Origin: Escherichia coli
GTDB taxonomy: Bacteria; Pseudomonadota; Gammaproteobacteria; Enterobacterales; Enterobacteriaceae
DNA: 64,000 bases
NCBI RefSeq assembly: GCF_001677475.2
Contig: NZ_CP015229.1
Reading direction: 5' to 3' (one strand)
This document shows positions 1 through 50,592 of this stretch, piece after piece. The notes below the pieces were generated by a model, which worked only from the letters and a program-made list of their open reading frames with translations, was not told the DNA's origin and ran no database searches. The position numbers and the translations under genes were made by a program. How positions within the stretch are numbered: the first letter of the stretch is position 1; the number at the start of each line of letters is the position of its first letter.

Positions 1-1
1 C

Positions 2-469
2 ACGCTGACGGTTTCTAACCTGTACGGTATGGTCACCGGGATGGCGGAAGATCTGCAGAGTCTGGTCGGCGGAACGGTGGTCCGGCGTAAGGTTTACGCC
101 CGTTTTCTGGATGCGGTGAACTTCGTCAACGGAAACAGTGACGCCGATCCGGAGCAGGAGGTGATCAGCCGCTGGCGCATTGAGCAGTGCAGCGAACTGA
201 GCGCGGTGAGTGCCTCTTTTGTACTGTCCACGCCGACGGAAACGGACGGCGCTGTTTTTCCGGGACGTATCATGCTGGCCAACACCTGCACCTGGACCTA
301 TCGCGGCGATGAGTGCGGTTATCACGGTCCGGCGGTCGCGGATGAATATGACCAGCCAACGTCCGATATCACGAAGGATAAATGCAGCAAATGCCTGAGC
401 GGTTGTAAGTACCGCAATAACGTCGGCAACTTTGGCGGCTTCCTTTCCATTAACAAACTTTCGCAGTAA
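2..469 (+). CDS. L: Lambda-like minor tail protein L, C-terminal part (N-terminus lies upstream of the window)
   Basis: Frame open from base 2; translation (TLTVSNLYGMVTGMAED...FLSINKLSQ) matches the phage lambda L C-terminus as recalled; followed by K, I, J in lambda order. Confidence 0.8.
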   Translation, partial: TLTVSNLYGMVTGMAEDLQSLVGGTVVRRKVYARFLDAVNFVNGNSDADPEQEVISRWRIEQCSELSAVSASFVLSTPTETDGAVFPGRIMLANTCTWTYRGDECGYHGPAVADEYDQPTSDITKDKCSKCLSGCKYRNNVGNFGGFLSINKLSQ

Positions 470-542
470 ATCCCATGTATTAGACGTCAACTAGTTTTGC
501 CGACTCGCGCCAACTATACTGGCCGCACCCTTCAGGGCGACA

Positions 543-1298
543 TCAAGTCGCGCTTGTTACTGCCTTCGCTGTCTTTTTCCTGTAGCTTTCCCCTTTCAGT
601 TCGAACATATATCCGTGATGGAGCAGCCTGTCTGCCGCAGCCACCGCCATAGTCTCATCCACGAAGATGCTGCCCCACATGCTGAACGGATGGTTACTGG
701 TTATCACCAGGCTCCCACGTTCATAGCGATGCGCTATTAACTCGAACAGCACACCCGTTTCGGCACTATCGCGTTTGACATAGCCAAGATCATCCACCAC
801 TATCACCCGGTAGCGATCCAGTTTCAGTAGCAGCTCATTCAGTTTCAACTGAGCTCTGGCTTTACGTAGTTCCTGCAACAGCTCTCCTGCGCTGTAGAAC
901 CGGGCCCGGTAGCCCTGACCTACTACGCCATCCACGATCGCTGCCGCCAGATGGCTTTTCCCCAACCCGCTGGCTCCGAACAGCAGAACGTTTTCTCCTG
1001 CATCAACCCAGTCTGTCGTTTCACAGAGTTGCCGGAACTGAGCTCCATTCAGTTCCGGCACCTGACTGAAGTCGTATTCGCTCAGCGTTTTGGCAACTGG
1101 CAACCGGGCCTCCTTTTTATAACGACGCAGTTTTTCACTCTCGCGCCACAGGAGTTCTTCATTGCATAGCGTCAGAAGATAGCGCGATGGTGTCCAGCCT
1201 TCTGCCAGCGCTCGTTTTTCCAGAGCGTGCCATTCAGCTCCAACTCGTGTCAGGCGTAGTTTACGCAGGCTATGTTCAAGGTGATGGATATTGCTCAC
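543..1298 (-). CDS. istB: IS21-family transposition helper ATPase IstB
   Basis: 251 aa ORF with Walker A motif GASGLGKSH and typical IstB length; start overlaps istA stop. Confidence 0.9.
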   Translation of the reverse strand: MSNIHHLEHSLRKLRLTRVGAEWHALEKRALAEGWTPSRYLLTLCNEELLWRESEKLRRYKKEARLPVAKTLSEYDFSQVPELNGAQFRQLCETTDWVDAGENVLLFGASGLGKSHLAAAIVDGVVGQGYRARFYSAGELLQELRKARAQLKLNELLLKLDRYRVIVVDDLGYVKRDSAETGVLFELIAHRYERGSLVITSNHPFSMWGSIFVDETMAVAAADRLLHHGYMFELKGESYRKKTAKAVTSAT

Positions 1299-2794
1299 TG
1301 CGAACCTCCCTTGCCACGCAGTAGTTGCTCATAACTGCTCAGGTTATGCTGTATCACATTGACTACCGGCAACGCCTTTTCTTTTATACCCAGGAAGCGC
1401 ATCAGCCGGTGCAGATCCACGTTTCCCGGGGTATTCAGCATCTGCTCCATACCTTTTGCCACGACTGAGATATCGTCGTATCCTGCAGCCAGTTTCAGGG
1501 CATGTACCATCAGCCTTCCTGCCATATCGGGCTCCAGATGATTACATAAGCGACGCCACAGCCTCCGCCATTCATCGTCCGGCAGGATGTCATTTCTCAG
1601 CGTTGCATGGCAGAACGCACCGGGCTTTTTTGCCAGACTGTCGATCACATGTCGGAAGTCGATACGACGGGCCCGCGTCTTCCCTTTTTCTGGTCTGACG
1701 CGAGGGCAGCTCATGACCTCGCTGCTGCCAACGTAACAGCTCAGACGATCGTCCCATAACCTGACCCGTAACAGTTGACCTACAAGCCGGGAAGGTACGC
1801 TGTAGACGACGTGCTTCACATTGATGGTACTGCTGCGACTAACCCTCACAGTCAGCTCATCATAGTCAGCACTGCGACGAAGCGGCAGCGGTTTCAGATG
1901 AAGACGTTCTTCCTTGACCAGATCCTGATTGTTACGGTTGTGCCGCATAACCTGCTGAGTGATGAAGGCCTGATATTCTTCTATGGTGCTGAAGTCGTTA
2001 CTGCCCCGCAGTATCAGCGCCTGACAGATACGCCTTTTCAGATGTCCGTGGGCACTTTCAACCGAGCCATTTTCGTGGCCCCGACCGGCATTATTGTGTA
2101 CGCCCTGCATTCCGTAGTGCTGACAGAGAGTAGCATAACGCTCAGTCAGCTCGCGGCGTCCATCTTCGCCCTGTTGTTTCCATGCTGCCCTCAGGCTGTC
2201 CGTTTTATGTTCTACCGGCACTCCGCCCAGTTGTCCGAGGGCTTCCTGCAGGCCTTCAGCCAGAGCAGAGAAGCTCTCACCACCCAGAACAACCCGCATC
2301 CAGCTCCAGTGGCTCCATTCCAGACGGAAGTGATACAACTTATGCGCCAACAACTTACCGGCGATGGTGACAACTACACCTTTCAGTTCAGTAAAGTCCG
2401 ACAGGCCTCGCAGGCCGGGCTGATGTTGCTGGCGGAACATGACCTCCTGCTCTGTACCATACTGTAGTTTCCATTCGCGAACCCGCCGTTGCATTGTTCT
2501 TCGAAGGCTGTTGGGGTACTGGCCGGGATATTTATCCTGTAGCATCTCCAGTAGAGTTGTTGGTGTCAGAGCCGGCCTCTCTTTCAACAGAGGAACAAGC
2601 ATGCTGTCCCACACAGCTTCCAGAGGATCTTTGCGTGTGCGCCAGTGCCGAACACTGTTTTTTGCCCACTCTCCTTTTTCGATCCGACGACCAGAACGGA
2701 CTGAGATACCAGCCTTCATGGCCGAGATATGCTGAGTTATACCTTTCTTACGCTGAGTCATATAGTAACTGACCTGAGAAGTATTGAGCGTCAC
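1295..2794 (-). CDS. istA: IS21-family transposase IstA
   Basis: 499 aa ORF immediately upstream of and coupled to istB; N-terminal HTH-like region and integrase-like core; family assignment by architecture. Confidence 0.85.
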   Translation of the reverse strand: MTLNTSQVSYYMTQRKKGITQHISAMKAGISVRSGRRIEKGEWAKNSVRHWRTRKDPLEAVWDSMLVPLLKERPALTPTTLLEMLQDKYPGQYPNSLRRTMQRRVREWKLQYGTEQEVMFRQQHQPGLRGLSDFTELKGVVVTIAGKLLAHKLYHFRLEWSHWSWMRVVLGGESFSALAEGLQEALGQLGGVPVEHKTDSLRAAWKQQGEDGRRELTERYATLCQHYGMQGVHNNAGRGHENGSVESAHGHLKRRICQALILRGSNDFSTIEEYQAFITQQVMRHNRNNQDLVKEERLHLKPLPLRRSADYDELTVRVSRSSTINVKHVVYSVPSRLVGQLLRVRLWDDRLSCYVGSSEVMSCPRVRPEKGKTRARRIDFRHVIDSLAKKPGAFCHATLRNDILPDDEWRRLWRRLCNHLEPDMAGRLMVHALKLAAGYDDISVVAKGMEQMLNTPGNVDLHRLMRFLGIKEKALPVVNVIQHNLSSYEQLLRGKGGSQ

Positions 2795-2890
2795 GCCATT
2801 TCCTGTTGGATCATGTAAATGACACTCAGGTTACAAAACCGGCCAGAATAATCGGCGCCAGGCGGACTGAGTTATTGTCGTCTCATACCC

Positions 2891-3634
2891 ATGACACAGA
2901 CTGAATCAGCGATTCTGGCGCACGCCCGGCGGTGTTCGCCTGCGGAATCGTGCGGCTTCGTGGTGAGAACGCCGGAGGGAGACAGGTATCTTCCCTGCGT
3001 GAATATCTCCGGTGAGCCGGAGGCGTATTTCCGGATGTCGCCGGAGGACTGGCTGCGGGCAGAAATGCAGGGTGAGATTGTGGCGCTGGTCCACAGCCAC
3101 CCCGGTGGACTGCCCTGGCTGAGTGAGGCCGACAGGCGGCTGCAGGTGCAGAGTGATTTGCCGTGGTGGCTGGTCTGCCGGGGGGCGATTCACAAGTTCC
3201 GCTGTGTGCCACATCTTACCGGGCGACGCTTTGAGTACGGGGTGACGGACTGTTACACGCTGTTCCGGGATGCTTACCATCTGGCGGGGATTGAGATGCC
3301 GGATTTTCATCGCGGGGATGACTGGTGGCGTAACGGCCAGAATCTCTATCTGGATAATCTGGAGGCCACAGGGCTGTATCAGGTGCCGTTGTCATCAGCA
3401 CAACCGGGCGATGTGCTGCTGTGCTGTTTTGGTTCATCGGTGCCGAATCATGCCGCCATTTACTGCGGCGACGGCGAGCTGCTGCACCATATTCCTGAAC
3501 AACTGAGCAAACGAGAGAGGTATACCGACAAATGGCAGCGACGCACACACTCCCTCTGGCGTCACCGGGCATGGCACGCATCTGCCTTTACGGGGATTTA
3601 CAACGATTTGGCCGCCGCATCGACCTTCGTGTGA
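2891..3634 (+). CDS. K: Lambda-like tail assembly protein K (JAB/MPN metalloprotease-like plus NlpC/P60-like domains)
   Basis: 247 aa ORF; JAMM motif HSHx7Sx2D (HSHPGGLPWLSEAD); C-terminus matches lambda K as recalled; overlaps I by about 100 nt as in lambda; alternative internal start at 3035 corresponds to the classical 199-aa lambda K. Confidence 0.85.
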   Translation: MTQTESAILAHARRCSPAESCGFVVRTPEGDRYLPCVNISGEPEAYFRMSPEDWLRAEMQGEIVALVHSHPGGLPWLSEADRRLQVQSDLPWWLVCRGAIHKFRCVPHLTGRRFEYGVTDCYTLFRDAYHLAGIEMPDFHRGDDWWRNGQNLYLDNLEATGLYQVPLSSAQPGDVLLCCFGSSVPNHAAIYCGDGELLHHIPEQLSKRERYTDKWQRRTHSLWRHRAWHASAFTGIYNDLAAASTFV

Positions 3635-4263: not shown

Positions 4264-7200
4264 ATGGGTAAAGGCAGCAGTAAGGGGCATACCCCGCGCG
4301 AAGCGAAGGATAACCTGAAGTCCACGCAGTTGCTGAGTGTGATCGATGCCATCAGCGAAGGGCCGGTTGAAGGTCCGGTGGATGGATTAAAAAGCGTGCT
4401 GCTGAACAGTACGCCGGTGCTGGACAGTGAGGGGAATACCAATATCTCCGGTGTCACGGTGGTGTTCCGTGCAGGTGAGCAGGAGCAGACACCGCCGGAG
4501 GGATTTGAATCCTCCGGCTCCGAGACGGTGCTGGGTACGGAAGTGAAGTACGACACGCCGATTACCCGGACCATCACGTCTGCAAACATCGACCGTCTGC
4601 GCTTTACCTTCGGTGTGCAGGCACTGGTGGAAACCACCTCAAAGGGGGACCGGAATCCGTCGGAAGTCCGCCTGCTGGTTCAGATACAACGTAACGGTGG
4701 CTGGGTGACGGAAAAAGACATCACCATTAAGGGAAAAACCACCTCACAGTATCTGGCCTCGGTGGTGGTGGGTAACCTGCCGCCGCGCCCGTTCAGTATC
4801 CGGATGCGCAGGATGACGCCGGACAGCACTACAGACCAGCTGCAGAACAAAACGCTCTGGTCGTCATACACCGAAATCATCGATGTGAAACAGGGCTACC
4901 CGAACACGGCACTGGTCGGTGTACAGGTGGACTCGGAGCAGTTCGGCAGCCAGCAGGTGAGTCGTAATTATCATCTTCGCGGGCGCATTCTGCAGGTGCC
5001 GTCGAACTATAACCCGCAGACGCGGCAATACAGCAGTATCTGGGACGGAACGTTTAAACCGGCATACAGCAACAACATGGCCTGGTGTCTGTGGGATATG
5101 CTGACCCATCCGCGCTACGGCATGGGGAAACGTCTTGGTGCGGCGGATGTGGATAAATGGGCGCTGTATGTCATCGGCCAGTACTGCGACCAGTCAGTGC
5201 CGGACGGCTTTGGCGGCACGGAGCCGCGCATCACCTGTAATGCTTACCTGACAACACAGCGTAAGGCGTGGGATGTGCTCAGTGATTTCTGCTCGGCGAT
5301 GCGCTGTATGCCGGTATGGAACGGGCAGACGCTGACGTTCGTGCAGGACCGGCCGTCGGATAAGGTGTGGACCTATAACCGCAGTAATGTGGTGATGCCG
5401 GATGACGGCGCGCCGTTCCGCTACAGCTTCAGCGCCCTGAAGGACCGCCATAATGCCGTTGAGGTGAACTGGATTGACCCGGACAACGGCTGGGAGACGG
5501 CAACAGAGCTTGTGGAGGACACGCAGGCCATTGCCCGTTACGGTCGTAACGTCACGAAGATGGATGCCTTTGGCTGTACCAGCCGGGGGCAGGCGCACCG
5601 CGCCGGGCTGTGGCTGATTAAAACGGAACTGCTGGAAACGCAGACCGTGGACTTCAGCGTGGGTGCCGAAGGGCTTCGCCATGTGCCGGGCGATATCATT
5701 GAAATCTGCGATGATGACTATGCGGGTATCAGCATCGGTGGTCGCGTGCTGGCGGTGAACAGCCAGACCCGGACGCTGACGCTCGACCGTGAAATCACGC
5801 TGCCATCCTCCGGCACCACTCTGATAAGCCTGGTTGACGGAAATGGCAATCCGGTCAGCGTGGAGGTTCAGTCCGTCACCGACGGCATGAAGGTGAAAGT
5901 GAGCCGTGTTCCTGACGGCGTTGCAGAATACAGCGTGTGGGGGCTGAAGCTGCCGACGCTGCGCCAGCGCCTGTTCCGCTGCGTGAGTATCCGTGAGAAC
6001 GACGACGGCACGTATGCCATCACTGCCGTGCAGCATGTACCGGAAAAAGAAGCCATCGTGGATAACGGGGCGCACTTTGACGGCGACCAGAGCGGCACGG
6101 TGAATGGTGTCACGCCGCCAGCGGTGCAGCACCTTACCGCCGAAGTCACCGCAGACAGCGGGGAGTATCAGGTACTGGCCCGCTGGGACACGCCGAAGGT
6201 GGTGAAGGGCGTGAGCTTCATGCTTCGCCTGACCGTGGCAGCGGACGACGGCAGTGAGCGGCTGGTCAGCACAGCCCGGACGACGGAAACCACATACCGC
6301 TTCAGACAACTGGCGCTGGGGCGTTATATGCTGACGGTCCGGGCGGTAAATGCCCGGGGGCAGCAGGGTGATCCGGCGTCGGTATCGTTCCGGATTGCGG
6401 CACCGGTAGCGCCTGTCACTATTGAACTGATACCGGGGTATTTTCAGATAACGGCGGTCCCGAAACTGGCTGTATATGACCCGACGGTACAGTTTGAGTT
6501 CTGGTTATCGGAAAAGCGGATTATCGATATCAGGCAGGTTGAAACCACAGCCCGCTATCTTGGTACGGCGCTGTACTGGATAGCCTCCGGACCGGATATT
6601 GAGCCGGGCAATAATTATTATTTTTACGTTCGCAGTGTGAATACCGTCGGCAAATCGGCATTTGTGGAGGCTGTTGGCCAGCCGGGTAACGATGCTGAGA
6701 AATATCTCCATTTTTTTGAAGGGAAAATAAACAGCACCCTGCTGGGGCAGGAGCTGAACGATCGTATTAATGCCTCGGCATTGCGCAGTGAAGTTGAGCA
6801 ACTGGAGGATGAGATCAATCAGCAGATAGAGAGTGATATTGCTGAAGTGACCCAAAAAATCGGGGAGACAGAAAACAGCCTCACGCAGCTGGTTGCGAAA
6901 AAAAATGATGAGCTGTCACTGGGTATATCACAGGTGAGCCAGAGAGTGGATAACGTCAGCAGCGAACTCACGCAGACGGTCAGTCAGAGTAATGAGGAGA
7001 ATGCACGCCAGATAGCGCAGGTTCGCCAGTATGTGGATCAAAAAAGCAGTGAAATCATGACGACAACGGACCAGAAGCTGGGAGATCAGGAGGCCACCAT
7101 CCAGCAGATACAAAAGGTTCAGACGGACACCAGTAATAACCTGAACAGTATGTGGGCCGTGAAACTGCAGCAGATGCAGGATGGTCGCCTTTATATTGCG

Positions 7201-7965
7201 GGTATCGGTGCCGGTATTGAGAACACCCCCGACGGCATGCAGAGTCAGGTGCTGCTGGCGGCAGACAGGATTGCGATGATTAATCCTGCAAATGGCAACA
7301 CAAAACCGATGTTTGTTGGTCAGGGTGATCAGATATTCATGAATGAAGTGTTCCTGAAATATCTGACGGCTCCCACCATTACCAGCGGCGGTAATCCTCC
7401 TGCATTTTCCCTGACACCGGACGGAAAGCTGACCGCTAAAAATGCCGATATCAGCGGTAACGTGAATGCGAACTCCGGGACGCTCAACAACGTCACGATA
7501 AATGAGAACTGTCAGATTAAGGGGAAACTGTCAGCCAACCAGATTGAAGGCGATATTGTCAAAACGGTCAGCAAGTCTTTCCCCCGCACGAACAGTTATG
7601 CCAGTGGCACCATCACGGTAAGAATCAGTGATGATCAGAAATTTGACCGGCAGGTCATGATACCGCCAGTGTTGTTCCGTGGTGGTAAGCATGAGAATTT
7701 CAACAGTAATAACCAACAGTCATACTGGTATTCAACCTGCCGGTTAAGAGTGACCCGCAATGGTCAGGAGATTTTTAATCAGTCCACGACGGATGCTCAG
7801 GGCGTATTTTCCTCAGTTATAGATATGCCTGCCGGACAGGGGGCGCTGACACTGACATTCACCGTATCTTCATCAGGAGCGAATAACTGGACACCAACAA
7901 CCAGTATCAGCGATCTGCTGGTTGTGGTGATGAAGAAATCCACAGCAGGTATCAGTATCAGCTGA
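4264..7965 (+). CDS. J: Lambda-like tail tip / host specificity protein J (1233 aa) with divergent C-terminal receptor-binding region
   Basis: N-terminal about 800 aa match lambda J as recalled ([21 protein letters not shown]...); C-terminal third diverges and is longer. Confidence 0.9.
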
Positions 7966-11470: not shown

Positions 11471-11513
11471 GTGGCAAAATTGGGACAAAAGGGGCAAAAA
11501 TGGGGCAAAAAAA
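11471..11513. repeat. Four tandem approximately 10-bp GGGGCAAAA-like units (phased A-tracts)
   Basis: GTGGCAAAAT / TGGGACAAAA / GGGGCAAAAA / TGGGGCAAAAAAA read directly from the sequence, helically phased. Confidence 0.7.
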
Positions 11514-11805
11514 GAGTAGGTTATTGTGGTTTATTGTAGTTGCTGATATGTTTTAATTCATTGAAAATGAAATAAAATACTTATGAGTCAGATGGTTGCA
11601 ATTTTTGTCCTTACTTGTTCAGGTTGTATTGTTCTTTCTTACTAATTTCTTGATTTTGCGACATTTAAAAGCGACTCAATTCGTTATATGGCATCAGAAG
11701 AGTATGCGTCATGCCGGAATGCCCAGCATAAGAAATCTGATATAAAAACAGTGGCGTGTATGGTACGGATTAGAGGGGAAAATGTCAGCACATTTGCGAA
11801 ATGAA

Positions 11806-11839: not shown

Positions 11840-12355
<516 letters not shown>

Positions 12356-12414
12356 TTAGATCAAAGGAGGAAGAATAAGCAGAAAAAGCCCGCCATAACA
12401 GCGGGCAGGAGGAT

Positions 12415-13548
12415 TTAGAACTGATAAACCAGACCTAAAGCGACAATATCATCGGTAGAGATGCCGTTGGCAGCGTAGAAGCTGTCATCTTCATCCAACA
12501 GGTTGATTTTATAGTCAACATAGGTGGACATGTTTTTATTGAAATAGTAAGTCGCGCCAACATCGGCGTATTTAACCAGATCTTTATCATCAACACCTGC
12601 CGGGTTGTCTGCACCACCGGCAGCGTGCAGGTCACGGCCTTTAGACATCAGGAAAGAGACTGCCGGACGCAGACCAAAATCAAACTGGTACTGTGCAGTA
12701 ACTTCAAAGTTCTGGGTTTTGTTTGCAACAGCATAATCGCTGTCGCCAAACGGGGTCATATTACGCGTTTCTGAATACATGGTTGCCAGGTAAATATTGT
12801 TAGCATCGTATTTTAGCCCAGCAGTCCACGCGTCTGCTTTATCACCACCCGCCGCAGTATGGTTAACCTGGTCATTGGTGCGGTCAGAAGAGGTGTATGC
12901 CGCACCAGCGCTAAAGCCCATGCCTAAATCATATGTTGTGGAAAGACCCCAGCCGTCACCGTTTTCATGGCGAACATCACGTCCGTTGTTGGTGCCTTCC
13001 TGACCATTACTGGCACCTTCGTTGTTACCTTGATACTGCACCGCGAAGTTCAGACCATTTACCAGACCGAAGAAATCAGTATTACGATAAGTCGCGACGC
13101 CATTGGCACGACCAGTCATAAAGTTGTCTGCATTGGTATAAGAGTCACCGCCAAATTCAGGCAGCATATCGGTCCAGCCTTCGATGTCGTACATTACGCC
13201 ATAATTACGTCCGTAATCGAAAGAACCGTAATCTGCAAATTTCAATCCGGCAAATGCCAGACGGGTCCATGACTGGTTTTTTGAGGATTCAGTGTTGTTT
13301 GCCTGAATATTGTATTCCCATTGACCGTAGCCAGTGAGTTGATCGTTAATTTGGGTTTCGCCTTTAAAACCCAGACGCGCATAGCTCTGGTCGCCATCTT
13401 TCGCTGAATTATCAGAAAAATAATGCAGGCCATCAACTTTGCCATACAGATCTAATTTGTTGCCGTCTTTATTATAAACTTCGGCTGCATGTGCAGCACC
13501 TGCGGCGAGCAGGGCAGGAATTAAAAGTGCCAGTACTTTGCTTTTCAT
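12415..13548 (-). CDS. ompN: Outer membrane porin OmpN (OmpC/OmpF family)
   Basis: 377 aa porin with signal peptide and C-terminal ...LVYQF; located between uspF and micC/ydbK as in K-12. Confidence 0.85.
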
Positions 13549-13775
13549 TGAATAAATCCTTTAGTTATTTTATTTGCCTTTTATCCCCATTTCGGGGAGT
13601 GAAAACATCCTAAAGGAGAAGTTCAGTTAGCCGATAAATATCATTTGTTACGCCTTAAGTAAAACCTTAATCAAATAATTCCTCTGAAATGACAATAAGT
13701 CTTGTGAATGTATCGAAGATAATACATACAAAATAAAAATTATACTTTTAATTTGCTATACGTTATTCTGCGCGG

Positions 13776-13884
13776 GTTATATGCCTTTATTGTCACAGAT
13801 TTTATTTTCTGTTGGGCCATTGCATTGCCACTGATTTTCCAACATATAAAAAGACAAGCCCGAACAGTCGTCCGGGCTTTTTTT
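13776..13884 (+). ncRNA. micC: MicC small regulatory RNA (Hfq-dependent, represses ompC)
   Basis: Sequence GTTATATGCCTTTATTGTCACAGATTTTATTTTCTGTTGGGCC...CCCGAACAGTCGTCCGGGCTTTTTTT matches recalled MicC including the terminator hairpin; ompN-ydbK intergenic position. Confidence 0.9.
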
Positions 13885-13913
13885 TAGAATTGGATAATCC
13901 TTATCCAGAGCAT

Positions 13914-16900
13914 TTAATCGGTGTTGCTTTTTTCCGCTTTTCCGGCCATTTGTGCCAGGAAGTCATAGCGTTTTTGCAAATCAGCTGCGGCATCTTTCCA
14001 TAACTGTTCTGCCACTTCTGGCTGCTGCGAATTCAGACGACGGAAACGCTGCTCGTGAAGTAACGTTTCTTCCAGTGCTTCTGACGGCGGGCGTGAATCC
14101 AGCGCCAGCGGCAGTTTGCCTTCATCGGCACGACGCGGATCAAAGCGATATAGCGGCCAGAAGCCGGTAGCAGTGAGTTGGCGCATCTGGTCGTGACTGA
14201 GTGCCAGATCGTAACCATGCTCTTCACACGGGCTATAAGCGATGATCAGCGATGGCCCCGGATACGCTTCCGCTTCCTGAATCGCTTTCACCGTCTGGTT
14301 GAGCTGCGCGCCGAGAGAAATCTGCGCCACATAAACATGACCGTACATCATCATACTGACGCCAAGATCTTTACGCGCTTTACGTTTGCCGTGCTCGCCG
14401 AACTTAGTTACTGCACCCAGCGGTGTCGCTTTCGACGCCTGACCACCGGTGTTGGAATAGCATTGCGTATCCAGCACCAGAATGTTGATGTTTTCCGTCA
14501 AACTCAATACATGATCCAGACCGCCAAAGCCGATATCGTAAGCCCAGCCATCACCACCAATCAGCCAGATTGATTTTTCCACCAGTGCATCTGCGTCACG
14601 TAGCAGTTCATGTGCTTCGGCAACATCGTTGAGTTGCTGGCGTAAAGCTGCAACCTGCTCACGACGAACCTCTGGCGTAGCGTCTGATTTCAACGCCGTC
14701 AGTAATTCCGTCGGGATTTTATCGGCAAATTGATCCAGCAGACGAAGCACGCGGACACGGTGTTGATCGACCGTCAGGCGGAAACCAAGGCCAAATTCGG
14801 CGTTATCTTCAAACAGCGAGTTCGCCCATGCCGGCCCACGACCGTTGGCATCGGTGGTATACGGTGTAGAGGGCAGGTTACCGCCATAAATTGAAGAACA
14901 GCCGGTGGCGTTAGCGATCAACATCCGGTCGCCATAGAGCTGAGTCAGCAATTTAATATACGGCGTCTCGCCACAACCGGAGCAAGCACCTGAATATTCA
15001 AACAGCGGTGTAATCAGCTGCGATGTACGAATATCAATACGTTCCAGTTTGCTACGGTCGATTTCTGGCAGGTTGAGGAAGAAATCGTAATTGATTTTCT
15101 CTTCTTCGACATGTTCCAGGCGCGACATCATATTGATGGCTTTAATCTCTGGATTCTGACGGTCTTTCGCCGGGCAAACTTCGACGCACAGGTTACAACC
15201 GGTGCAATCTTCCGGAGCCACCTGCAAGACATATTTCTGCCCGCGCATATCACGCGATTTCACATCCAGCGAATGCAGGCTGGCAGGGGCGTTTTCCATC
15301 GCTTCAGGCGGTACCACTTTTGCGCGAATAGCTGAGTGTGGGCAAGCGGCGACGCAGTGGTTACATTGGGTACAGAGTTCCTCTTTCCAGATGGGGATCT
15401 CTTCGGCGATATTGCGTTTTTCCCAGCGCGTGGTGCCCATCGGCCAGGTGCCGTCTGGCGGCAGCGCCGAAACGGGGAGGGCATCACCAAGCCCGGCGAG
15501 CATCGCAGCGGTTACGGTTTTCACGAAATCAGGGGCGGCATCGGAAACCACTGGCGGTCGATTGGCGCTGTGCGGATTTACCGGTTGCAACGGAACTTCT
15601 TCTACGGATTCACGCGCCAGCGCCAGAGCCTGCCAGTTGCGCTCCACCAGATCCTGACCTTTGCTACTGTAACTTTTGGCAATCGCACCCTGCAATTCTG
15701 CGAGGGCGCTATCGCCAGGCAGAATTTGCGTCAGATGGAAAAAAGCCATCTGCATGACGGTATTAATACGGGCCGCCAGGCCACATTCGCGGGCGATTTT
15801 CGCTGCGTTAATCACATAGAAGCGCGCTTTTTTCTGGTTTAGCACGGCCTGAACTTCCTGCGGCAAGCGCGACCACACTTCATCTGCGCTGTACGGCGTG
15901 TTGAGCAGGAAAATGCCGCCAGGTTTTAAACGCTCAGCCATCTGATATTTATCGATAAACTGCAACTGGTGGCAGCCAACAAAATCAGCCTGGGAAATGA
16001 GATAAGCGGAACGAATCGGCTGTTCGCTCACGCGAAGGTGAGAAACCGTCAGGCCGCCCGCCTTTTTGGAGTCGTAAACAAAATAGCCCTGTGCGTACCA
16101 CGGCGTGGAATTACCGATAATCTTGATATTGTTTTTGGTCGCGGAAACGCTGCCATCACTACCAAGGCCATAAAACAAGGCTTCCAGTTTCGCCGAGTTT
16201 GGCAGGGTGTTTTCCGGCAACGGCAGTGACAGATTGGTCACATCATCGTAAATACCAACCGTAAAGCGCGCTTTCGGTTTAGCCGCGTTGAGCTCGGCAA
16301 ATACCGCCAGTACACAGTCCGGGCCAAATTCTTTGGATGAAAGACCATAGCGCCCACCAATGACACGGGGCAGGATTTCACGCTCGCCATTATTAAAAGC
16401 TTCTGCCAGTGCGGTCATCACATCCAGATAGAGCGGTTCTGCCTGGGCACCAGGTTCTTTGGTTCTGTCCAGTACCGCCACGCTGCGTACGGATCCCGGC
16501 AGAGCTTGTAGCAAGTGTTTGGCGGAGAAGGGACGGTACAGGCGAACTTTCAGCACGCCAACTTTTTCGCCACGGGTTAGCAATTCATCAACCACTTCTT
16601 CACAGGTGCCAATGGCAGAGCCCATCAGGATAATCACCCGTTCCGCTTGCGGATGCCCGTAATATTCAAACGGCTGATACTGACGACCTGTCGCGGCAGA
16701 GAAATCATTCATCGCCTGTTCAACATGGTCATAGACCGCGTTGTACCATGGGTTGGTGGCTTCGCGAGACTGGAAATAAGTGTCAGGATTGGCGGACGTA
16801 CCGCGGATCACCGGATGTTCCGGGTTGAGTGCCCGGGCGCGATGAGCATCAATTTCGGCCTGCGGCATGAGATCAAGAATCGTGTCATCGGCCAGCGGGA

Positions 16901-17438
16901 CAATTTTATTGATTTCGTGGGACGTGCGGAAACCATCAAAGAAATGAATAAATGGCACGCGGCTTTTCAGCGTCGCGATGTGCGAAATGAGAGCAAAGTC
17001 TTGCGCTTCCTGGACGTTTGCTGCACACAACATCGCGCAACCCGTCTGGCGCACCGCCATGACGTCGGAATGATCGCCAAAAATAGAGAGTGCATGTGTG
17101 GCAACGGTACGTGCCGCTACATGCAGGACAAACGGTGTGAGTTCGCCTGCCAGTTTGTACAGCGTCGGGATCATCAGCAGCAAACCCTGCGATGACGTAA
17201 ACGATGTTGAAAGAGCACCCGTCTGCAAAGCGCCATGCACGGTAGCGATAGCACCCGCTTCCGACTGCATTTCAACCACGCGTGGTGTGTCTCCCCAAAC
17301 GTTCTTCAAGCCGTTTCCGGCCCAGGCATCAGCCTGTTCTGCCATCGTGGAACTGGGGGTAATAGGGTAGATGGCGATAACTTCACTGGTGCGAAACGCC
17401 ACCGAAGCAACCGCGCCATTACCGTCAATAGTAATCAT
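13914..17438 (-). CDS. ydbK: Pyruvate:flavodoxin/ferredoxin oxidoreductase
   Basis: 1174 aa; TPP-binding and two 4Fe-4S ferredoxin motifs (CTQCNHCVAACP, CTGCNLCVEVCP). Confidence 0.95.
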   Translation of the reverse strand: MITIDGNGAVASVAFRTSEVIAIYPITPSSTMAEQADAWAGNGLKNVWGDTPRVVEMQSEAGAIATVHGALQTGALSTSFTSSQGLLLMIPTLYKLAGELTPFVLHVAARTVATHALSIFGDHSDVMAVRQTGCAMLCAANVQEAQDFALISHIATLKSRVPFIHFFDGFRTSHEINKIVPLADDTILDLMPQAEIDAHRARALNPEHPVIRGTSANPDTYFQSREATNPWYNAVYDHVEQAMNDFSAATGRQYQPFEYYGHPQAERVIILMGSAIGTCEEVVDELLTRGEKVGVLKVRLYRPFSAKHLLQALPGSVRSVAVLDRTKEPGAQAEPLYLDVMTALAEAFNNGEREILPRVIGGRYGLSSKEFGPDCVLAVFAELNAAKPKARFTVGIYDDVTNLSLPLPENTLPNSAKLEALFYGLGSDGSVSATKNNIKIIGNSTPWYAQGYFVYDSKKAGGLTVSHLRVSEQPIRSAYLISQADFVGCHQLQFIDKYQMAERLKPGGIFLLNTPYSADEVWSRLPQEVQAVLNQKKARFYVINAAKIARECGLAARINTVMQMAFFHLTQILPGDSALAELQGAIAKSYSSKGQDLVERNWQALALARESVEEVPLQPVNPHSANRPPVVSDAAPDFVKTVTAAMLAGLGDALPVSALPPDGTWPMGTTRWEKRNIAEEIPIWKEELCTQCNHCVAACPHSAIRAKVVPPEAMENAPASLHSLDVKSRDMRGQKYVLQVAPEDCTGCNLCVEVCPAKDRQNPEIKAINMMSRLEHVEEEKINYDFFLNLPEIDRSKLERIDIRTSQLITPLFEYSGACSGCGETPYIKLLTQLYGDRMLIANATGCSSIYGGNLPSTPYTTDANGRGPAWANSLFEDNAEFGLGFRLTVDQHRVRVLRLLDQFADKIPTELLTALKSDATPEVRREQVAALRQQLNDVAEAHELLRDADALVEKSIWLIGGDGWAYDIGFGGLDHVLSLTENINILVLDTQCYSNTGGQASKATPLGAVTKFGEHGKRKARKDLGVSMMMYGHVYVAQISLGAQLNQTVKAIQEAEAYPGPSLIIAYSPCEEHGYDLALSHDQMRQLTATGFWPLYRFDPRRADEGKLPLALDSRPPSEALEETLLHEQRFRRLNSQQPEVAEQLWKDAAADLQKRYDFLAQMAGKAEKSNTD

Positions 17439-17711
17439 ATGACACCCTTACATTGCGCAAATGAGGGGCGCACGAAATTGCTGCGCGCCCAGTAGTAATC
17501 TTTCAATTTTAGCAAATGGCTTTCTTCTGCATTTTCGCTTTTGTGTCCCCCACATCAGCGTAATGAATGTTTTGATCAAACAGAGGGCAAAAAAATAGCC
17601 ATAAAAAAGTAAAAATGCGGGGCAATGCGCAGGACAGCTCTCGACGTCGCCCTCTGTGCTGCCTATTATTTATGGCGGTGTCGTTTGGCTTGAAGATCAG
17701 AGGAAGAAAAG

Positions 17712-17978
17712 ATGCGAGCAGCGTTTTGGGTAGGGTGTGCCGCTTTATTGTTGTCGGCGTGTAGTAGTGAACCTGTTCAGCAGGCGACTGCGGCGCACGT
17801 AGCGCCAGGTTTAAAAGCGTCGATGTCCAGTAGTGGAGAAGCAAATTGTGCAATGATCGGCGGTTCGCTTTCTGTTGCCCGTCAACTGGATGGTACGGCG
17901 ATTGGGATGTGTGCATTACCCAACGGCAAACGCTGTAGCGAACAGTCACTTGCCGCCGGGAGCTGTGGCAGCTATTAA
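17712..17978 (+). CDS. ydbJ: Small putative lipoprotein (DUF333 family)
   Basis: 88 aa with lipobox LLLSAC, RBS AGAGGAAG upstream; K-12 synteny. Confidence 0.8.
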   Translation: MRAAFWVGCAALLLSACSSEPVQQATAAHVAPGLKASMSSSGEANCAMIGGSLSVARQLDGTAIGMCALPNGKRCSEQSLAAGSCGSY

Positions 17979-18397
17979 TTCATTAAATCCGCCAGCTTAT
18001 AAGTTAATGTCTGTTTCGCGGTCGCCAGCGTTAACTGGTTCGCGGTCAGATCCACTTGTGCACCTTCCTTCAGCATGTCGCTAATGGTGTTATCAAGTTC
18101 ATTAAGCTGCGGGTTAGCGCACATCATACGGGTCATTGCCAGCCCTTTGGCTGTCAGTTCACCATTAGACAGTTTGCCTTCACCGCTAAAGCGGTTACAC
18201 ATGCTGCCGGAAATCATCATTTTTTCACCAAAGCTGATTTCTGGCGGATTTTTATCGCTGGTCACGGGCTTACCGTTTACGCTTTCCAGCACAAAGCGAT
18301 GATGCTGTAGCTGTTCTGGCGTTACAGCAATTTTGTCATTACTTACACATCCCGCCATCAGCAGGCTTAGCGCAACAAACGCGGCTACTTTCTTCAT
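17975..18397 (-). CDS. hslJ: Heat-shock lipoprotein HslJ (META domain)
   Basis: 140 aa from MKKVAAFVALSLLMAGC (lipobox); K-12 synteny. Confidence 0.85.
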   Translation of the reverse strand: MKKVAAFVALSLLMAGCVSNDKIAVTPEQLQHHRFVLESVNGKPVTSDKNPPEISFGEKMMISGSMCNRFSGEGKLSNGELTAKGLAMTRMMCANPQLNELDNTISDMLKEGAQVDLTANQLTLATAKQTLTYKLADLMN

Positions 18398-18507
18398 TGT
18401 GGTTCTCAATTACAGTTTCTGACTCAGGACTATTTTAAGAATAGAGAATGAAAGGTCATTGGGGATTATCTGAATCAGCTCCCCTGGATTGCAGGGGAGC
18501 GGCAAGA

Positions 18508-19497
18508 TTAAACCAGTTCGTTCGGGCAGGTTTCGCCTTTTTCCAGATTGCTTAAGTTTTGCAGCGTAGTCTGAGAAATACTGGTCAGAGCTTCTGCTGT
18601 CAGGAATGCCTGGTGCCCGGTAAACAGCACGTTGTGGCAGGCAGACAGGCGACGGAATACGTCATCCTGGATCACGTCGTTGGATTTATCTTCAAAGAAC
18701 AGATCGCGTTCGTTCTCATACACGTCCATACCCAACGAACCAATTTTCTGATTTTTCAGCGCTTCAATAGCCGCCTGAGAATCAATTAATGCACCGCGAC
18801 TGGTATTGACGATCATCACGCCATTTTTCATCTGATCGAAGGCGGCTTCGTTCAAAAGATGGTAGTTTTCCGGTATCAGTGGGCAGTGCAGAGAGATAAC
18901 GTCTGATTCAGAGAACAGGGTTGGCAGATCGACATACTCCACACCGAGTTCCAGCGCCGCCGCACTTGGATACGGATCGAACGCCAGCAGACGCATACCA
19001 AAACCTTTCAGAATGCGCAGCATCGCCACACCGATTTTACCGGTACCGATAACGCCTGCCGTTTTGCCATACATAGTAAAGCCGGTCAGACCTTCCAGAG
19101 AGAAGTTAGCGTCACGGGTACGCTGATACGCGCGGTGAATACGGCGGTTCAGCGTCATCATCATACCGATGGCGTGTTCAGCAACGGCCTCTGGATCATA
19201 GGCTGGAACACGGACTACTTTCAGCCCCAGTTCTTTTGCCGCGTCAAGGTCGACGTTGTTGAAACCGGCACAGCGCAGGGCGATATATTTAACGCCGTGC
19301 TTTTTCAGCTCTTCCAGCACCGGGCGGCTGCCGTCATCGTTTACGAAAATACATACCGCTTCGCAGCCATTGGCAGTTTTAGCGGTTTTTTCCGTCAGCA
19401 GAAAGTCAAAAAATTCCAGCTCAAAGCCAAAGGACTCGTTCACCTGTTGCAGGTACTTCTTGTCGTACTGTTTTGTGCTATAAACGGCGAGTTTCAT
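18508..19497 (-). CDS. ldhA: Fermentative D-lactate dehydrogenase (NAD-dependent)
   Basis: 329 aa D-2-hydroxyacid dehydrogenase with GxGxxG (GVIGTGKIG). Confidence 0.95.
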   Translation of the reverse strand: MKLAVYSTKQYDKKYLQQVNESFGFELEFFDFLLTEKTAKTANGCEAVCIFVNDDGSRPVLEELKKHGVKYIALRCAGFNNVDLDAAKELGLKVVRVPAYDPEAVAEHAIGMMMTLNRRIHRAYQRTRDANFSLEGLTGFTMYGKTAGVIGTGKIGVAMLRILKGFGMRLLAFDPYPSAAALELGVEYVDLPTLFSESDVISLHCPLIPENYHLLNEAAFDQMKNGVMIVNTSRGALIDSQAAIEALKNQKIGSLGMDVYENERDLFFEDKSNDVIQDDVFRRLSACHNVLFTGHQAFLTAEALTSISQTTLQNLSNLEKGETCPNELV

Positions 19498-19704
19498 AAG
19501 ACTTTCTCCAGTGATGTTGAATCACATTTAAGCTACTAAAAATATTTTACAAAATTTCAAATATAATTGAAAGCTATGGCGATATTGAAAAATTCATCAA
19601 CAACTATGCTTAGTGTAGGCGCAACCTTCAACTGAACGGTTAAACATGCCACAATACCCGTATTGAATGCTTAATTTTTCGCTAAATCAGGATATTAACT
19701 ACCC

Positions 19705-22344
19705 ATGCTGGGTAAATATAAAGCCGTTCTCGCGCTGTTATTACTGATTATTCTTGTGCCGTTGACGCTGCTGATGACGCTCGGGCTGTGGGTTCCCACG
19801 CTGGCGGGCATCTGGCTACCGCTCGGGACACGTATTGCATTAGATGAAAGCCCACGCATTACGCGTAAAGGTTTAATCATTCCCGATCTCCGTTATCTGG
19901 TGGGAGATTGTCAGCTTGCGCATATCACCAACGCCAGCCTTTCACATCCCAGCCGCTGGTTATTGAACGTCGGCACGGTAGAACTTGATTCAGCTTGTCT
20001 GGCGAAATTGCCGCAGACGGAGCAATCGCCAGCTGCTCCAAAAACCCTCGCGCAGTGGCAGGCCATGTTGCCTAACACCTGGATCAATATCGATAAACTG
20101 ATTTTTTCTCCCTGGCAGGAATGGCAGGGAAAACTTTCTCTCGCGTTAACCTCTGATATCCAGCAACTGCGTTATCAGGGCGAAAAAGTTAAATTTCAAG
20201 GCCAGTTGAAAGGGCAACAACTTACAGTCAGCGAACTGGATGTCGCCGCGTTTGAAAATCAGCCACCGGTAAAACTGGTGGGGGAATTTACTATGCCGCT
20301 CGTGCCGGATGGACTTCCTGTCAGTGGCCATGCTACTGCGACGTTAAACTTGCCGCAGGAACCGTCACTGGTGGATGCCGAGCTGGACTGGCAGGAAAAT
20401 AGCGGGCAATTGATTGTGCTGGCACGGGATAACGGCGATCCGTTGCTCGATTTGCCGTGGCAAATTACTCGTCAACAATTGACCGTAAGCGATGGTCGCT
20501 GGAGCTGGCCGTATGCAGGTTTTCCTTTGAGTGGCCGACTGGGTGTCAAAGTCGACAACTGGCAGGCAGGGCTTGAGAACGCTCTGGTCAGCGGACGACT
20601 GAGTGTGCTGACCCAGGGGCAAGCGGGTAAGGGCAACGCGGTGCTTAATTTTGGCCCAGGAAAATTAAGTATGGATAACAGCCAGCTGCCTTTGCAGCTG
20701 ACCGGTGAAGCGAAACAGGCGGACCTCATTTTATATGCCCGCTTACCCGCGCAGCTAAGCGGAAGTCTGACTGACCCAACGCTGGCCTTTGAGCCAGGCG
20801 CGTTATTACGTTCGAAGGGAAGAGTCATCGATTCGCTGGACATCGATGAAATCCGTTGGCCATTAGCGGGTGTAAAAGTCACCCAACGTGGTGTTGACGG
20901 ACGTTTGCAGGCCATTTTGCAGGCGCATGAAAATGAACTGGGCGATTTCGTGCTGCATATGGATGGGCTGGCGAATGATTTTCTCCCTGACGCTGGCCGC
21001 TGGCAGTGGCGCTACTGGGGAAAAGGGAGTTTTACACCGATGAATGCCACCTGGGATGTCGCAGGAAAAGGTGAGTGGCATGACAGCACGATTACGCTGA
21101 CCGATCTCTCCACCGGTTTCGACCAGTTACAATACGGTACGATGACGGTAGAAAAGCCGCGATTAATTCTCGACAAGCCCGTCGTCTGGGTACGTGACGC
21201 ACAGCATCCCTCCTTCAGCGGCGCGCTGTCACTGGACGCCGGGCAAACGCTGTTCACTGGCGGCAGTGTGTTACCGCCATCAACCTTAAAATTTAGCGTC
21301 GATGGACGCGAACCGACGTATTTCCTCTTTAAAGGCGATTTACATGCTGGTGAGATTGGCCCGGTTCGGGTAAATGGTCGCTGGGACGGTATTCGTCTGC
21401 GCGGTAACGCCTGGTGGCCTAAACAATCACTGACTGTATTCCAGCCGCTGGTGCCACCCGACTGGAAGATGAACTTACGCGATGGCGAACTGTATGCTCA
21501 GGTCGCATTTTCTGCTGCGCCTGAACAAGGATTCCGCGCGGGAGGGCACGGTGTGTTGAAAGGCGGTAGTGCCTGGATGCCAGATAATCAGGTTAACGGT
21601 GTCGATTTTGTCCTGCCTTTCCGTTTTGCCGATGGAGCCTGGCATCTGGGGACTCGCGGCCCCGTTACGTTGCGAATTGCCGAAGTGATTAATCTGGTGA
21701 CAGCGAAAAATATTACGGCTGATTTGCAAGGGCGCTATCCGTGGACAGAAGAAGAACCATTGCTGTTGACTGATGTTAGCGTCGATGTGTTAGGCGGTAA
21801 CGTGCTGATGAAACAATTACGTATGCCGCAACATGACCCGGCGCTGTTGCGGCTGAATAATCTCTCATCCAGCGAACTGGTTAGCGCCGTCAATCCGAAA
21901 CAATTCGCCATGTCCGGGGCATTTAGTGGTGCATTGCCGTTATGGCTAAACAACGAAAAATGGATAGTGAAAGATGGTTGGCTGGCAAATAGCGGGCCAA
22001 TGACCTTGCGGCTGGATAAAGACACCGCAGATGCGGTGGTGAAAGACAATATGACTGCGGGTTCAGCAATTAACTGGTTGCGCTATATGGAAATTAGCCG
22101 TTCATCGACAAATATTAATTTAGATAATCTCGGTTTATTAACCATGCAGGCCAACATTACAGGTACCAGTCGCGTTGATGGTAAAAGCGGTACGGTAAAC
22201 CTTAATTACCATCATGAAGAGAATATTTTTACGCTGTGGCGCAGTTTACGCTTTGGCGATAATCTCCAGGCATGGTTGGAGCAGAACGCACGTCTGCCGG
22301 GAAATGACTGTCCGCAAGGAAAAGAGTGTGAGGAAAAACAATGA
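19705..22344 (+). CDS. ydbH: AsmA/TamB-like envelope protein YdbH
   Basis: 879 aa with N-terminal TM segment; K-12 synteny. Confidence 0.9.
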   Translation: MLGKYKAVLALLLLIILVPLTLLMTLGLWVPTLAGIWLPLGTRIALDESPRITRKGLIIPDLRYLVGDCQLAHITNASLSHPSRWLLNVGTVELDSACLAKLPQTEQSPAAPKTLAQWQAMLPNTWINIDKLIFSPWQEWQGKLSLALTSDIQQLRYQGEKVKFQGQLKGQQLTVSELDVAAFENQPPVKLVGEFTMPLVPDGLPVSGHATATLNLPQEPSLVDAELDWQENSGQLIVLARDNGDPLLDLPWQITRQQLTVSDGRWSWPYAGFPLSGRLGVKVDNWQAGLENALVSGRLSVLTQGQAGKGNAVLNFGPGKLSMDNSQLPLQLTGEAKQADLILYARLPAQLSGSLTDPTLAFEPGALLRSKGRVIDSLDIDEIRWPLAGVKVTQRGVDGRLQAILQAHENELGDFVLHMDGLANDFLPDAGRWQWRYWGKGSFTPMNATWDVAGKGEWHDSTITLTDLSTGFDQLQYGTMTVEKPRLILDKPVVWVRDAQHPSFSGALSLDAGQTLFTGGSVLPPSTLKFSVDGREPTYFLFKGDLHAGEIGPVRVNGRWDGIRLRGNAWWPKQSLTVFQPLVPPDWKMNLRDGELYAQVAFSAAPEQGFRAGGHGVLKGGSAWMPDNQVNGVDFVLPFRFADGAWHLGTRGPVTLRIAEVINLVTAKNITADLQGRYPWTEEEPLLLTDVSVDVLGGNVLMKQLRMPQHDPALLRLNNLSSSELVSAVNPKQFAMSGAFSGALPLWLNNEKWIVKDGWLANSGPMTLRLDKDTADAVVKDNMTAGSAINWLRYMEISRSSTNINLDNLGLLTMQANITGTSRVDGKSGTVNLNYHHEENIFTLWRSLRFGDNLQAWLEQNARLPGNDCPQGKECEEKQ

Positions 22345-45177: not shown

Positions 45178-45346
45178 TCCACAACGTAATATTTCTTAAC
45201 TATTTGATTAATTGGGATAATCATTCCTGACAGTGAGTCCCCAATACCTTGATATATTCTGAATTTTTAATGAAGCGGCGTGTTGCGATATCTCCGTCAG
45301 GGGAATTGATGCACCATAACGCAAACCGAATTATCAAGGATTGATA

Positions 45347-46848: not shown

Positions 46849-46863
46849 AGGAAAATAGAGAAA

Positions 46864-49927
<3,064 letters not shown>

Positions 49928-49977
49928 GTGGATTGAGATGTGGACTGAACTACAGTCCACATCAAGATCGTATCCGG

Positions 49978-50592
<615 letters not shown>

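Follow-up and report, generated by a model that had tools for sequence, protein, structure and literature searches.

A complete ISEc10 element in the spacer between tail genes L and K of a lambda-like Escherichia prophage

Joining of the element ends to the target by IstA and IstB, followed by gap repair, is the established transposition mechanism of the IS21 family, for which ISfinder gives target-site duplications of 4-8 bp. Insertion sequences are also found in lambdoid prophages, such as IS629 in O157 prophages and, classically, IS2 in lambda. IS21 and IS5376 encode an IstA transposase followed by an IstB AAA+ ATPase, possess long imperfect inverted repeats with a 'signature' CA-3' at their ends and produce a short duplication of the target, which is 5 bp in IS5376 (PMC10122671). 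The long terminal repeats of IS21-family elements are composed of repeated units bound by IstA (L1/L2 and R1/R2). Another member of the family is ISEc10; laboratory work on CFT073 yielded new insertions of it adjacent to lpp (PMC7482066).

In this study, an ISEc10 copy was found between the tail genes L and K of a lambda-like prophage. The host genome is that of a divergent Escherichia (IMG taxon 2721755653), in which uspF-ompN-nifJ follow shortly after the end of the prophage. The window, i.e. the whole stretch of 64,000 nucleotides that was analysed, begins inside L, and its features around the insertion are as follows.

1-469, plus strand: tail gene L (minor tail protein L, TIGR01600), cut by the left edge of the window so that only its 3' part is included; stop codon TAA at 467-469
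472-477: left copy of the target-site duplication, CCCATG
478-2887, minus strand: ISEc10, with termini TATTAGACG...CGTCTCATA
478-525: terminal inverted repeat, istB-proximal (right end in the orientation of the IS), from a repeat finder and alignment of both ends
543-1298, minus strand: istB, AAA+ helper ATPase, 251 aa, intact; NF038214 at 266.7 bits (cutoff 200)
1295-2794, minus strand: istA, transposase, 499 aa, intact; NF033546 at 226.4 bits (cutoff 160)
2840-2887: terminal inverted repeat, istA-proximal (left end in the orientation of the IS), adjoining K; found in the same two ways
2888-2893: right copy of the target-site duplication, CCCATG, holding the start codon of K at 2891-2893
2891-3634, plus strand: tail gene K (tail tip assembly protein), 247 aa, intact, with JAB/MPN and NlpC/P60 domains

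The element is a complete ISEc10 of 2,410 bp, and its two genes lie opposite to the tail genes. A total of 17 further ISEc10 copies, taken from E. coli chromosomes, from plasmids and from proviruses of IMG/VR, all have a length of exactly 2,410 bp and termini identical to those of the window copy, compared with the 2,530 bp given for an ISEc10 insertion elsewhere (PMC8764528). The name is based on the RefSeq annotation of near-identical copies: identity to copies labelled 'IS21-like element ISEc10 family' is 98.1-99.8% over 2,410 bp. When 5,426 complete E. coli genomes were searched, 544 records covered at least 80% of the ISEc10 query. The ISEc10 of CFT073 shares the termini and the layout of istA (499 aa) and istB (251 aa) with the window copy and is 98.5% identical to it in nucleotides over the full 2,410 bp, the IstA and IstB proteins differing by 4 and 2 amino acids, respectively. 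Private to the window copy are only its location and one base in istB, nt 623, which is G where the others have T and puts Leu226 in place of Ile; an exact look-up of this IstB variant elsewhere gave no match.

The istA and istB genes are arranged in this order in the same orientation, and the stop of istA overlaps the start of istB by 4 nt. IstA has no internal stops and differs by 0-4 aa from other ISEc10 copies; its residues 12-304 are covered by the NF033546 (transpos_IS21) profile match, and residues 311-366 match Pfam Mu-transpos_C_2. The IstB translation contains a Walker A motif GASGLGKS and a Walker B-like motif VVDD, and it matches the IS5376 IstB structures 8q3w/5bq5 with E=2e-45. 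A sequence search of the PDB with IstA gave no match, ISEc10 IstA being too diverged for one. In gene order, in its long imperfect inverted repeats and in its short target duplication the element resembles IS21 and IS5376, and the profile scores of both proteins exceed the NCBIfam cutoffs, in agreement with the original prediction of an IS21-family istA-istB element. The window copy is probably still active.

The repeat finder reports inverted arms at 477-525 and 2840-2888, 49 nt long and 71% complementary, of which 48 nt per arm lie within ISEc10. The ISEc10 arms start with TATTAGACG and TATGAGACG and carry two conserved blocks, the tip TATNAGACGNCAA and the inner GCGCC..TAT.CTGGCCG. Both ends read ...CGTCT(C/A)ATA-3' in 18/18 copies, with boundaries set by the target duplications. 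The 3'-terminal CA of IS21-family donors is thus absent from ISEc10, which terminates in TA-3' at both ends in all 18 copies and differs in this from IS21 and IS5376. An outward-facing TTGACG is present on the minus strand at 485-490, in the istB-proximal repeat and 7 nt from the tip; it faces L in antisense, and no -10 partner was found for it in the flank.

The hexamer CCCATG occurs at 472-477 and 2888-2893, directly outside the element; chance agreement over 6 nt at two given positions has a probability of 1 in 4,096. Since the termini are fixed by the 17 other ISEc10 copies, the whole of CCCATG is taken as the duplication. Sixteen of these 17 copies have a flanking direct repeat of their own, and at 17 sites, the window included, the duplication is 6 bp in 12, 7 bp in two, 8 bp in two and 5 bp in one. 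This is where ISEc10, with mostly 6 bp, differs from IS5376. The coordinates originally predicted (L stop at 469, K start at 2891, the two hexamers) were all confirmed, as were a 2.41-kb element opposite to the tail genes, imperfect inverted repeats of about 48 bp, and a right-hand hexamer that contains the ATG of K. Two doubts raised at that time are removed: a 6-bp duplication had been called atypical although it is the modal length for ISEc10, and the true duplication had been suspected to be a subset of CCCATG, whereas the fixed termini leave the full hexamer.

The genes on both sides of the element are intact. L scores 208 bits against TIGR01600 phage_tail_L (cutoff 70.75) over profile positions 77-224, and homologous junctions carry the RefSeq label 'phage minor tail protein L'. 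K contains Prok-JAB (residues 3-98) and NLPC_P60 (residues 111-224) domains in Pfam, and its protein sequence is identical in at least 23 contigs of public assemblies. Further downstream, I, J, lom, stf and tfa are intact as well, and the flanks show 0-2 mismatches per 3.5-7 kb to related, uninterrupted prophages.

ISEc10 is present in at least four provirus contigs of IMG 2721755653, in copies no more than 1 nt apart. The window copy differs at one base (623) from those in three other provirus contigs of this genome, and we therefore consider the insertion recent; base 623 is also the only difference from the copy in assembly GCA_040424295.1 (L016). The same L/K insertion was found in none of the 5,426 complete E. 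coli genomes, in no GTDB species representative, and in IMG/VR only in the source contig. ISEc10 is an already known element and its transposition an ordinary event, and the site in the L/K gap was seen in no other genome searched.

Uninterrupted L-K junctions have spacers of 4 to 11 nt. In lambda-like prophages, by the thousands, and in phage 434 they read TAAATCCCATGACACAG with one CCCATG. The comparison with related prophages that was originally proposed gives another picture for the closest relatives, whose flanks match those of the window and whose junction is CCCATTTTATG, with no contiguous CCCATG. A sibling prophage in the same genome has the latter junction too, in an uninterrupted L-K-I region without a single mismatch over 3,467 nt. 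Across 3.5-7 kb that are otherwise identical, these relatives differ from the window by one indel only, located exactly at the insertion point. The 5-nt length difference in the spacer is an old and widespread dimorphism, and the short allele exists in a 'long-type' background with no IS in two loci (L080, L157). The inferred empty site, taken as an exact 38-mer, has a single match in IMG/VR, and this lies in a distant prophage (about 79% identity). The lack of the exact hexamer target in the closest available 'empty' sites is an argument against the reading preferred below, and so are this single match and the TA-3' ends of the element.

We also considered that the extra TTTTA of the long allele might be a footprint left by excision of ISEc10. 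This was rejected, as alleles of this long class, among them CCCGGTTTATG, CCTGTTTTATG and CCCGTTTTATG, are old and widespread, and exact CCCATTTTATG occurs in seven IMG/VR contigs whose surroundings, apart from the sibling prophage, are 78-95% identical. By sequence comparison CCCATTTTATG is an old allele and no excision scar.

The presence of CCCATG on both flanks means that the site held a single CCCATG at the moment of insertion. The best explanation, with a probability of roughly 0.88, is that a complete ISEc10 recently transposed into the 5-nt L-K spacer of a lambda-like prophage. IstA, a DDE transposase, would have joined both IS ends, together with the IstB AAA+ ATPase, to target strands cut 6 bp apart, and gap repair would then have doubled CCCATG; the mechanism inferred for ISEc10 is the one described for IS21 and IS5376 (PMC10122671, PMC11208146).

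Another history is possible, though we hold it doubtful. The IS could have entered a prophage with the lambda-type short allele, after which recombination with the sibling homogenised the flanking tail module up to the edges of heterology and kept G-[IS]-CCC. This would account for a last difference that hugs the IS with no coincidence needed, and the two prophages of IMG 2721755653 do agree over the whole L-tfa interval, with 0 mismatches over 3,467 nt and 2 over 5,493 nt. Elsewhere they diverge: a 52-mer of the sibling's H gene has no match in the provirus contig of the window, and this is the usual mosaic pattern. Such a history needs, however, conversion to the left and right of the IS alike, or else a single heteroduplex with a large loop that escaped repair, and no residual donor polymorphisms are available as a trace. 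The prophage sequence upstream of L lies outside the window, and the IMG/VR loci end some 100 nt into L. It differs from recent transposition into the spacer in history only; the identity of the element is the same.

The insertion had also been proposed to separate K-I-J from late transcription and probably to make the prophage unable to produce tails. Strong polarity of this kind appears unlikely, even if several observations speak for it. The RNA between L and K would be 2.4 kb of untranslated antisense sequence; the plus strand of the IS contains four weak terminator-like hairpins, e.g. 2643-2657 followed by TTTTTTGCCC; and K is faced by no outward promoter, there being no sigma-70-like promoter on the plus strand near 2800-2890. 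The IS-derived promoter once suggested for K is thereby left without support: no plus-strand site was found in that interval, and TTGACG, the sole outward -35-like hexamer, points into L. The work of Haldorsen in 2008 is said to show ISEc10 activating ampC, a lead towards outward promoter activity. In two experimental systems, ISEc10 insertions lowered the expression of neighbouring genes, namely lpp (PMC7482066) and afa promoter fusions (PMC8764528).

On the other side stands the nature of lambdoid late transcription, on which Rho resistance is conferred by Q. Antitermination by Q likewise makes it resistant to terminators (PMC9388147), and being antiterminated it should cross 2.4 kb. The genes L, K, I, J, lom, stf and tfa have moreover stayed intact, with 0-2 mismatches to uninterrupted relatives, and a co-resident prophage with identical L-K-I could complement the defect. 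A related lineage carries ISEc10 in the same late operon before Z in two assemblies (L016 and L022), and two more contigs (L018 and L023) start within a few bases of this pre-Z junction.

A translational lesion seems more likely, from the sequence around K, than a transcriptional one. No allele of K is preceded by a Shine-Dalgarno sequence; anti-Shine-Dalgarno pairing upstream of the gene is -2.2 kcal/mol or weaker in every allele, compared with -6.8 to -12 for I, J and istB. Its start is normally placed 5-10 nt past the L stop, a position lost here. Since K lacks a Shine-Dalgarno sequence and starts just past L, its translation probably relies on being coupled to that of L. The insertion is intergenic and preserves the ORFs and the downstream start codon, which sets it apart from those of IS629 and IS2 in prophages, so that lost coupling, and not a disrupted gene, is the lesion to be expected; with these insertions it shares the position within a phage operon and the same questions of polarity and relief by antitermination. 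Late transcription, if Q-antiterminated like that of lambda, would pass through the IS antisense to istAB; the window does not reach the promoter, the Q gene or the head genes of this prophage. Ribosomes leaving L, with the L-K coupling broken, would reach the two-codon mini-ORF ATG TAT TAG (MY*) that the ATG of the left CCCATG (475-477) now opens into the IS. The output of K is probably reduced and not abolished, and the shortage could be made up in trans by the identical K of the sibling prophage. The effect on tail production is uncertain, and the earlier wording 'probably tail-defective' is not established.

A comparable insertion is the one before Z in GCA_040424295.1 (also in L022), where an ISEc10 variant 1 nt different occupies another stop/start junction of a near-identical prophage, between a head-tail gene (Pfam Gifsy-2 family) and tail gene Z. 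Its 6-bp duplication, ATGGCG, again contains the start codon of the downstream gene. It differs from the L/K insertion in the junction used, in the opposite orientation, istA running with the late genes, and in that the empty site of relatives equals the duplication exactly, with no 5-nt discrepancy. A general preference of ISEc10 for gene junctions was considered and rejected, because the other insertions in IMG 2721755653 lie within ORFs and several chromosomal copies split annotated genes.

A mechanistic link between the insertion and the loss of 5 nt from the L-K spacer, via target preference or target deletion, is rather improbable. In the first form, ISEc10 would possibly want C as the first and G as the last duplicated base and A/T three bases outside, in a roughly palindromic target; the short allele fits this and the long one does not, and a rare deletion might thus have made a hotspot. 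In the second, small target deletions possibly accompany IS21-family integration.

Very unlikely is a reading with no simple duplication at all, in which the IS entered the long allele TAAATCCCATTTTATGACACAG and non-canonical insertion or repair dropped 5 nt. The sole indel in 3.5-7 kb does coincide exactly with the insertion point, a placement with an estimated chance of about 0.1-0.2% if the events were unrelated (about 10 positions in about 7,000). The already shortened sequence is found, however, on both flanks, the left one ending and the right one starting with CCCATG; one staggered cut made in the long allele would not give both, so that each would need its own change. The pre-Z insertion, in addition, is fully canonical against the empty site in L020, and the spacer dimorphism is old and widespread, with IS-free short alleles known in an otherwise 'long-type' background.

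An assembly artefact that placed a repeated IS at the wrong junction is extremely improbable: a genome with four or more nearly identical copies of ISEc10, and with tail modules that are the same in two prophages, is hard for assemblers, but the perfect 6-bp duplication has the modal length and lies exactly at the ISEc10 termini, the private base 623 argues for assembly from reads of this copy itself, and both junctions are present in the IMG/VR provirus record, though this is probably the same assembly.

The recent transposition of ISEc10 into the L-K spacer is of limited importance beyond the annotation of this genome and opens no long-standing question. It illustrates concerted evolution between co-resident prophages, and it offers a natural case of the tolerance of a lambdoid late operon for a 2.4-kb intergenic insertion, in which antitermination and loss of coupling come together. 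If the link to target choice were true, a CNCAT / ATGNG preference, which is like the tip of ISEc10 itself, would favour start-codon stop/start junctions in phage late operons, and landing sites favoured in this way would spare the ORFs.

The two CCCATG hexamers that separate the minor tail protein gene L from the tail tip assembly gene K in this lambda-like prophage enclose 2,410 bp with istA and istB inside. The original prediction's description of the element and its junction, from the L stop and the hexamers to the K start and the istA-istB pair, agrees with the sequence base for base. The features are as follows.

467-469, plus strand, TAA stop codon of L (reading frame end)
472-477, left copy of CCCATG (direct sequence match)
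543-1298, minus strand, istB, 251 aa
1295-2794, minus strand, istA, 499 aa, overlapping istB by 4 nt
2888-2893, right copy of CCCATG (direct sequence match)
2891, plus strand, ATG start codon of K

When 5,426 complete E. coli genomes were searched by megablast, 544 records reached at least 80% query coverage, with a top identity of 99.8%, and all are annotated as 'IS21-like element ISEc10 family transposase / helper ATPase IstB'. The copy in CFT073 is 98.5% identical, and its proteins differ from those of the window, both encoded by full-length ORFs, at four (IstA) and two (IstB) amino acids. IstA and IstB score 226 and 267 bits against curated NCBIfam thresholds of 160 and 200, respectively, and IstB resembles the solved structure of IS5376 IstB (E=2e-45). 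The inverted repeats at the ends of the element are 48 nt long and 71% complementary, with TATTAGACG and TATGAGACG as first bases. Seventeen additional copies were extracted from chromosomes, plasmids and IMG/VR proviruses; all are exactly 2,410 bp with the ends TATTAGACG...CGTCTCATA, and 16 are each bordered by a direct repeat of their own. Both ends finish in ...ATA-3' (window 478-486 and 2879-2887), thus in TA-3' rather than the CA-3' termed a signature of IS21-family donor ends (PMC10122671). Within istA, 20 nt (1463-1482, GACTGAGATATCGTCGTATC) share 85% identity with the 20 terminal nt of the inverted repeat nearest istA (2865-2884, GACTGAGTTATTGTCGTCTC), a resemblance that may be due to chance. 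Laboratory transposition of ISEc10 is documented (PMC7482066), and here an IS that is already known and active occupies a new site, with canonical structure.

Target duplications were compared among 17 ISEc10 sites (the window and the comparison loci L005-L016 and L148-L153). Twelve of them are 6 bp long, two are 7 bp, two are 8 bp and one is 5 bp, which makes 6 bp the usual length for ISEc10. The suggestion that 6 bp is atypical and that the true duplication is a subset of CCCATG is not upheld. The first duplicated base is C at 11/17 sites (p=6e-4), the third is C at 10/17, the last is G at 9/17, and the base three positions upstream is A/T at 16/17. This target bias is weak and roughly palindromic. 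Many of the duplications, such as CTCATC, CACATC, CCCATG and CACCAT, look like the tip of the element itself, CTCATA.

Removal of the IS and one hexamer from the window leaves TAAATCCCATGACACAG. E. coli genome records with this junction number 4,387, and it also occurs in phage 434 and many other lambdoid phages. The closest relatives, which bear on the original prediction's refuting condition, differ at this point. Ten draft genomes with identical K, whose flanks depart from the window at 0-2 positions over 4.5-7 kb, read TAAATCCCATTTTATGACACAG, 5 nt longer than the window's empty site. The sibling prophage of the same genome (IMGVR_UViG_2721755653_000004) has the same long junction and shows no mismatch to the window along 3,467 nt. 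The sole indel in 3.5-7 kb of flanks coincides with the IS point (472-477/2888-2893 versus CCCATTTTATG at L161 7997-8039 and in L016-L025).

The spacer was sampled in 120 IMG/VR lambdoid contigs (L026-L145, equivalent to window 470-2900) and is dimorphic. The short class ATCCCATG (TAA ATCCC ATG) makes up about half of the junctions, and the remainder belong to the long class ATCCCGGTTTATG, ATCCTGTTTTATG and ATCCCGTTTTATG (TAA ATCC[CT]G[GT]TTT ATG), usually with ACT rather than ACA as the fourth codon of K. Rare short alleles in an 'ACT' background (L080 and L157) suggest that the 5-nt indel recurs or travels by recombination. The weak target consensus is better matched by the short allele than by any long-allele hexamer. 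An origin of the extra 5 nt as an ISEc10 excision scar is ruled out by this dimorphism and by the relatives' exact long allele in diverged backgrounds.

Since both IS flanks carry the shortened sequence, the shortening must be older than the duplication, and the IS entered at a single CCCATG. In one possible history, the IS entered a prophage with the short allele, whose tail module was then homogenised with that of the sibling, stopping at the borders of the heterology; this would explain the placement of the indel without coincidence and fits the observation that the two prophages are not identical in gene H. An earlier 5-nt deletion or short-patch conversion, followed by insertion, was also considered. 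A non-canonical insertion is the least likely history.

Both IS junctions occur at 100% identity in the provirus contig IMGVR_UViG_2721755653_000008 (45,657 nt). ISEc10 adjoins K in no other IMG/VR contig, and neither the GTDB representative genomes nor any of the 5,426 complete E. coli genomes has the same insertion. In the source genome, three further provirus contigs contain ISEc10 copies one base off the window copy, at position 623 (IstB Ile226, which is Leu in the window): IMGVR_UViG_2721755653_000004, _000006 and _000010, with duplications TTAAAC, GTTGAGCG and CACGGG. At least four copies differing mutually by at most 1 nt thus lie in predicted proviruses of the source genome, which suggests a recent ISEc10 burst there.

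The same variant, 1 nt different, lies between gene Z and the preceding gene in a near-identical prophage (L016 1274-3695, GCA_040424295.1). Like the window's, this insertion occupies a stop/start junction, with a 6-bp duplication (ATGGCG) containing the start codon of the downstream gene, and it is canonical against its own empty site. L022 shares this junction, and contigs L018 and L023 start within a few bases of it; the pre-Z insertion is probably common to a lineage. No general targeting of gene junctions by ISEc10 is apparent, since other insertions are intragenic; the three sibling-contig copies all lie within open reading frames.

The downstream host chromosome (uspF, ompN, nifJ through hrpA) is 97.4-99.1% identical to the best of the 5,426 genomes, with 99.1% at 12000-20000 (uspF, ompN, nifJ, ldhA, ydbH) and 97.4% at 44000-52000 (ynbB-D, hrpA). 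These values point to a divergent Escherichia lineage absent from that collection. The gene order past the prophage is similar to that on the right side of Rac in K-12. At the prophage right end, just past tfa, AT-rich intergenic sequence (11473-11541) holds short tandem arrays, about 3.7 copies of GGCAAAAATGG-like units and then 2.6 copies of GTAGTTTATT. J (4264-7965) encodes 1,233 aa, as in relatives, and two separate parts of it match the lambda_TipJ model (1,163 positions); the extra length presumably reflects an inserted segment or a variant receptor-binding part at the C-terminus.

The JAB domain of K begins at residue 3, and the ATG at 2891, inside the right-hand CCCATG copy, is therefore the true start. 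The ATG of the left-hand copy opens a two-codon ORF (ATG TAT TAG). No recognisable Shine-Dalgarno sequence for K was found in the window (2860-2893) or the uninterrupted alleles, where 5 or 10 nt separate the L stop from the start of K. Upstream of K, anti-Shine-Dalgarno pairing is no stronger than -2.2 kcal/mol in the window and in the short and long alleles, versus -6.8 to -12 kcal/mol for I, J and istB; K therefore probably depends on ribosomes terminating at L, and is normally translated through this coupling, which the IS would abolish. ISEc10 is antisense to the late operon, with no promoter-like sites facing K found within it; its sole outward -35-like hexamer points into L, and four weak terminator-like hairpins lie on its plus strand. 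Lambdoid late transcription is Q-antiterminated (PMC9388147). The same would apply to this prophage if it encodes Q, in the part that lies beyond the window. The remaining tail module (I, J, lom, stf and tfa) is intact, and the sibling prophage encodes an identical L-K-I. The prophage is possibly tail-defective, and the output of K is expected to be reduced rather than the operon dead.
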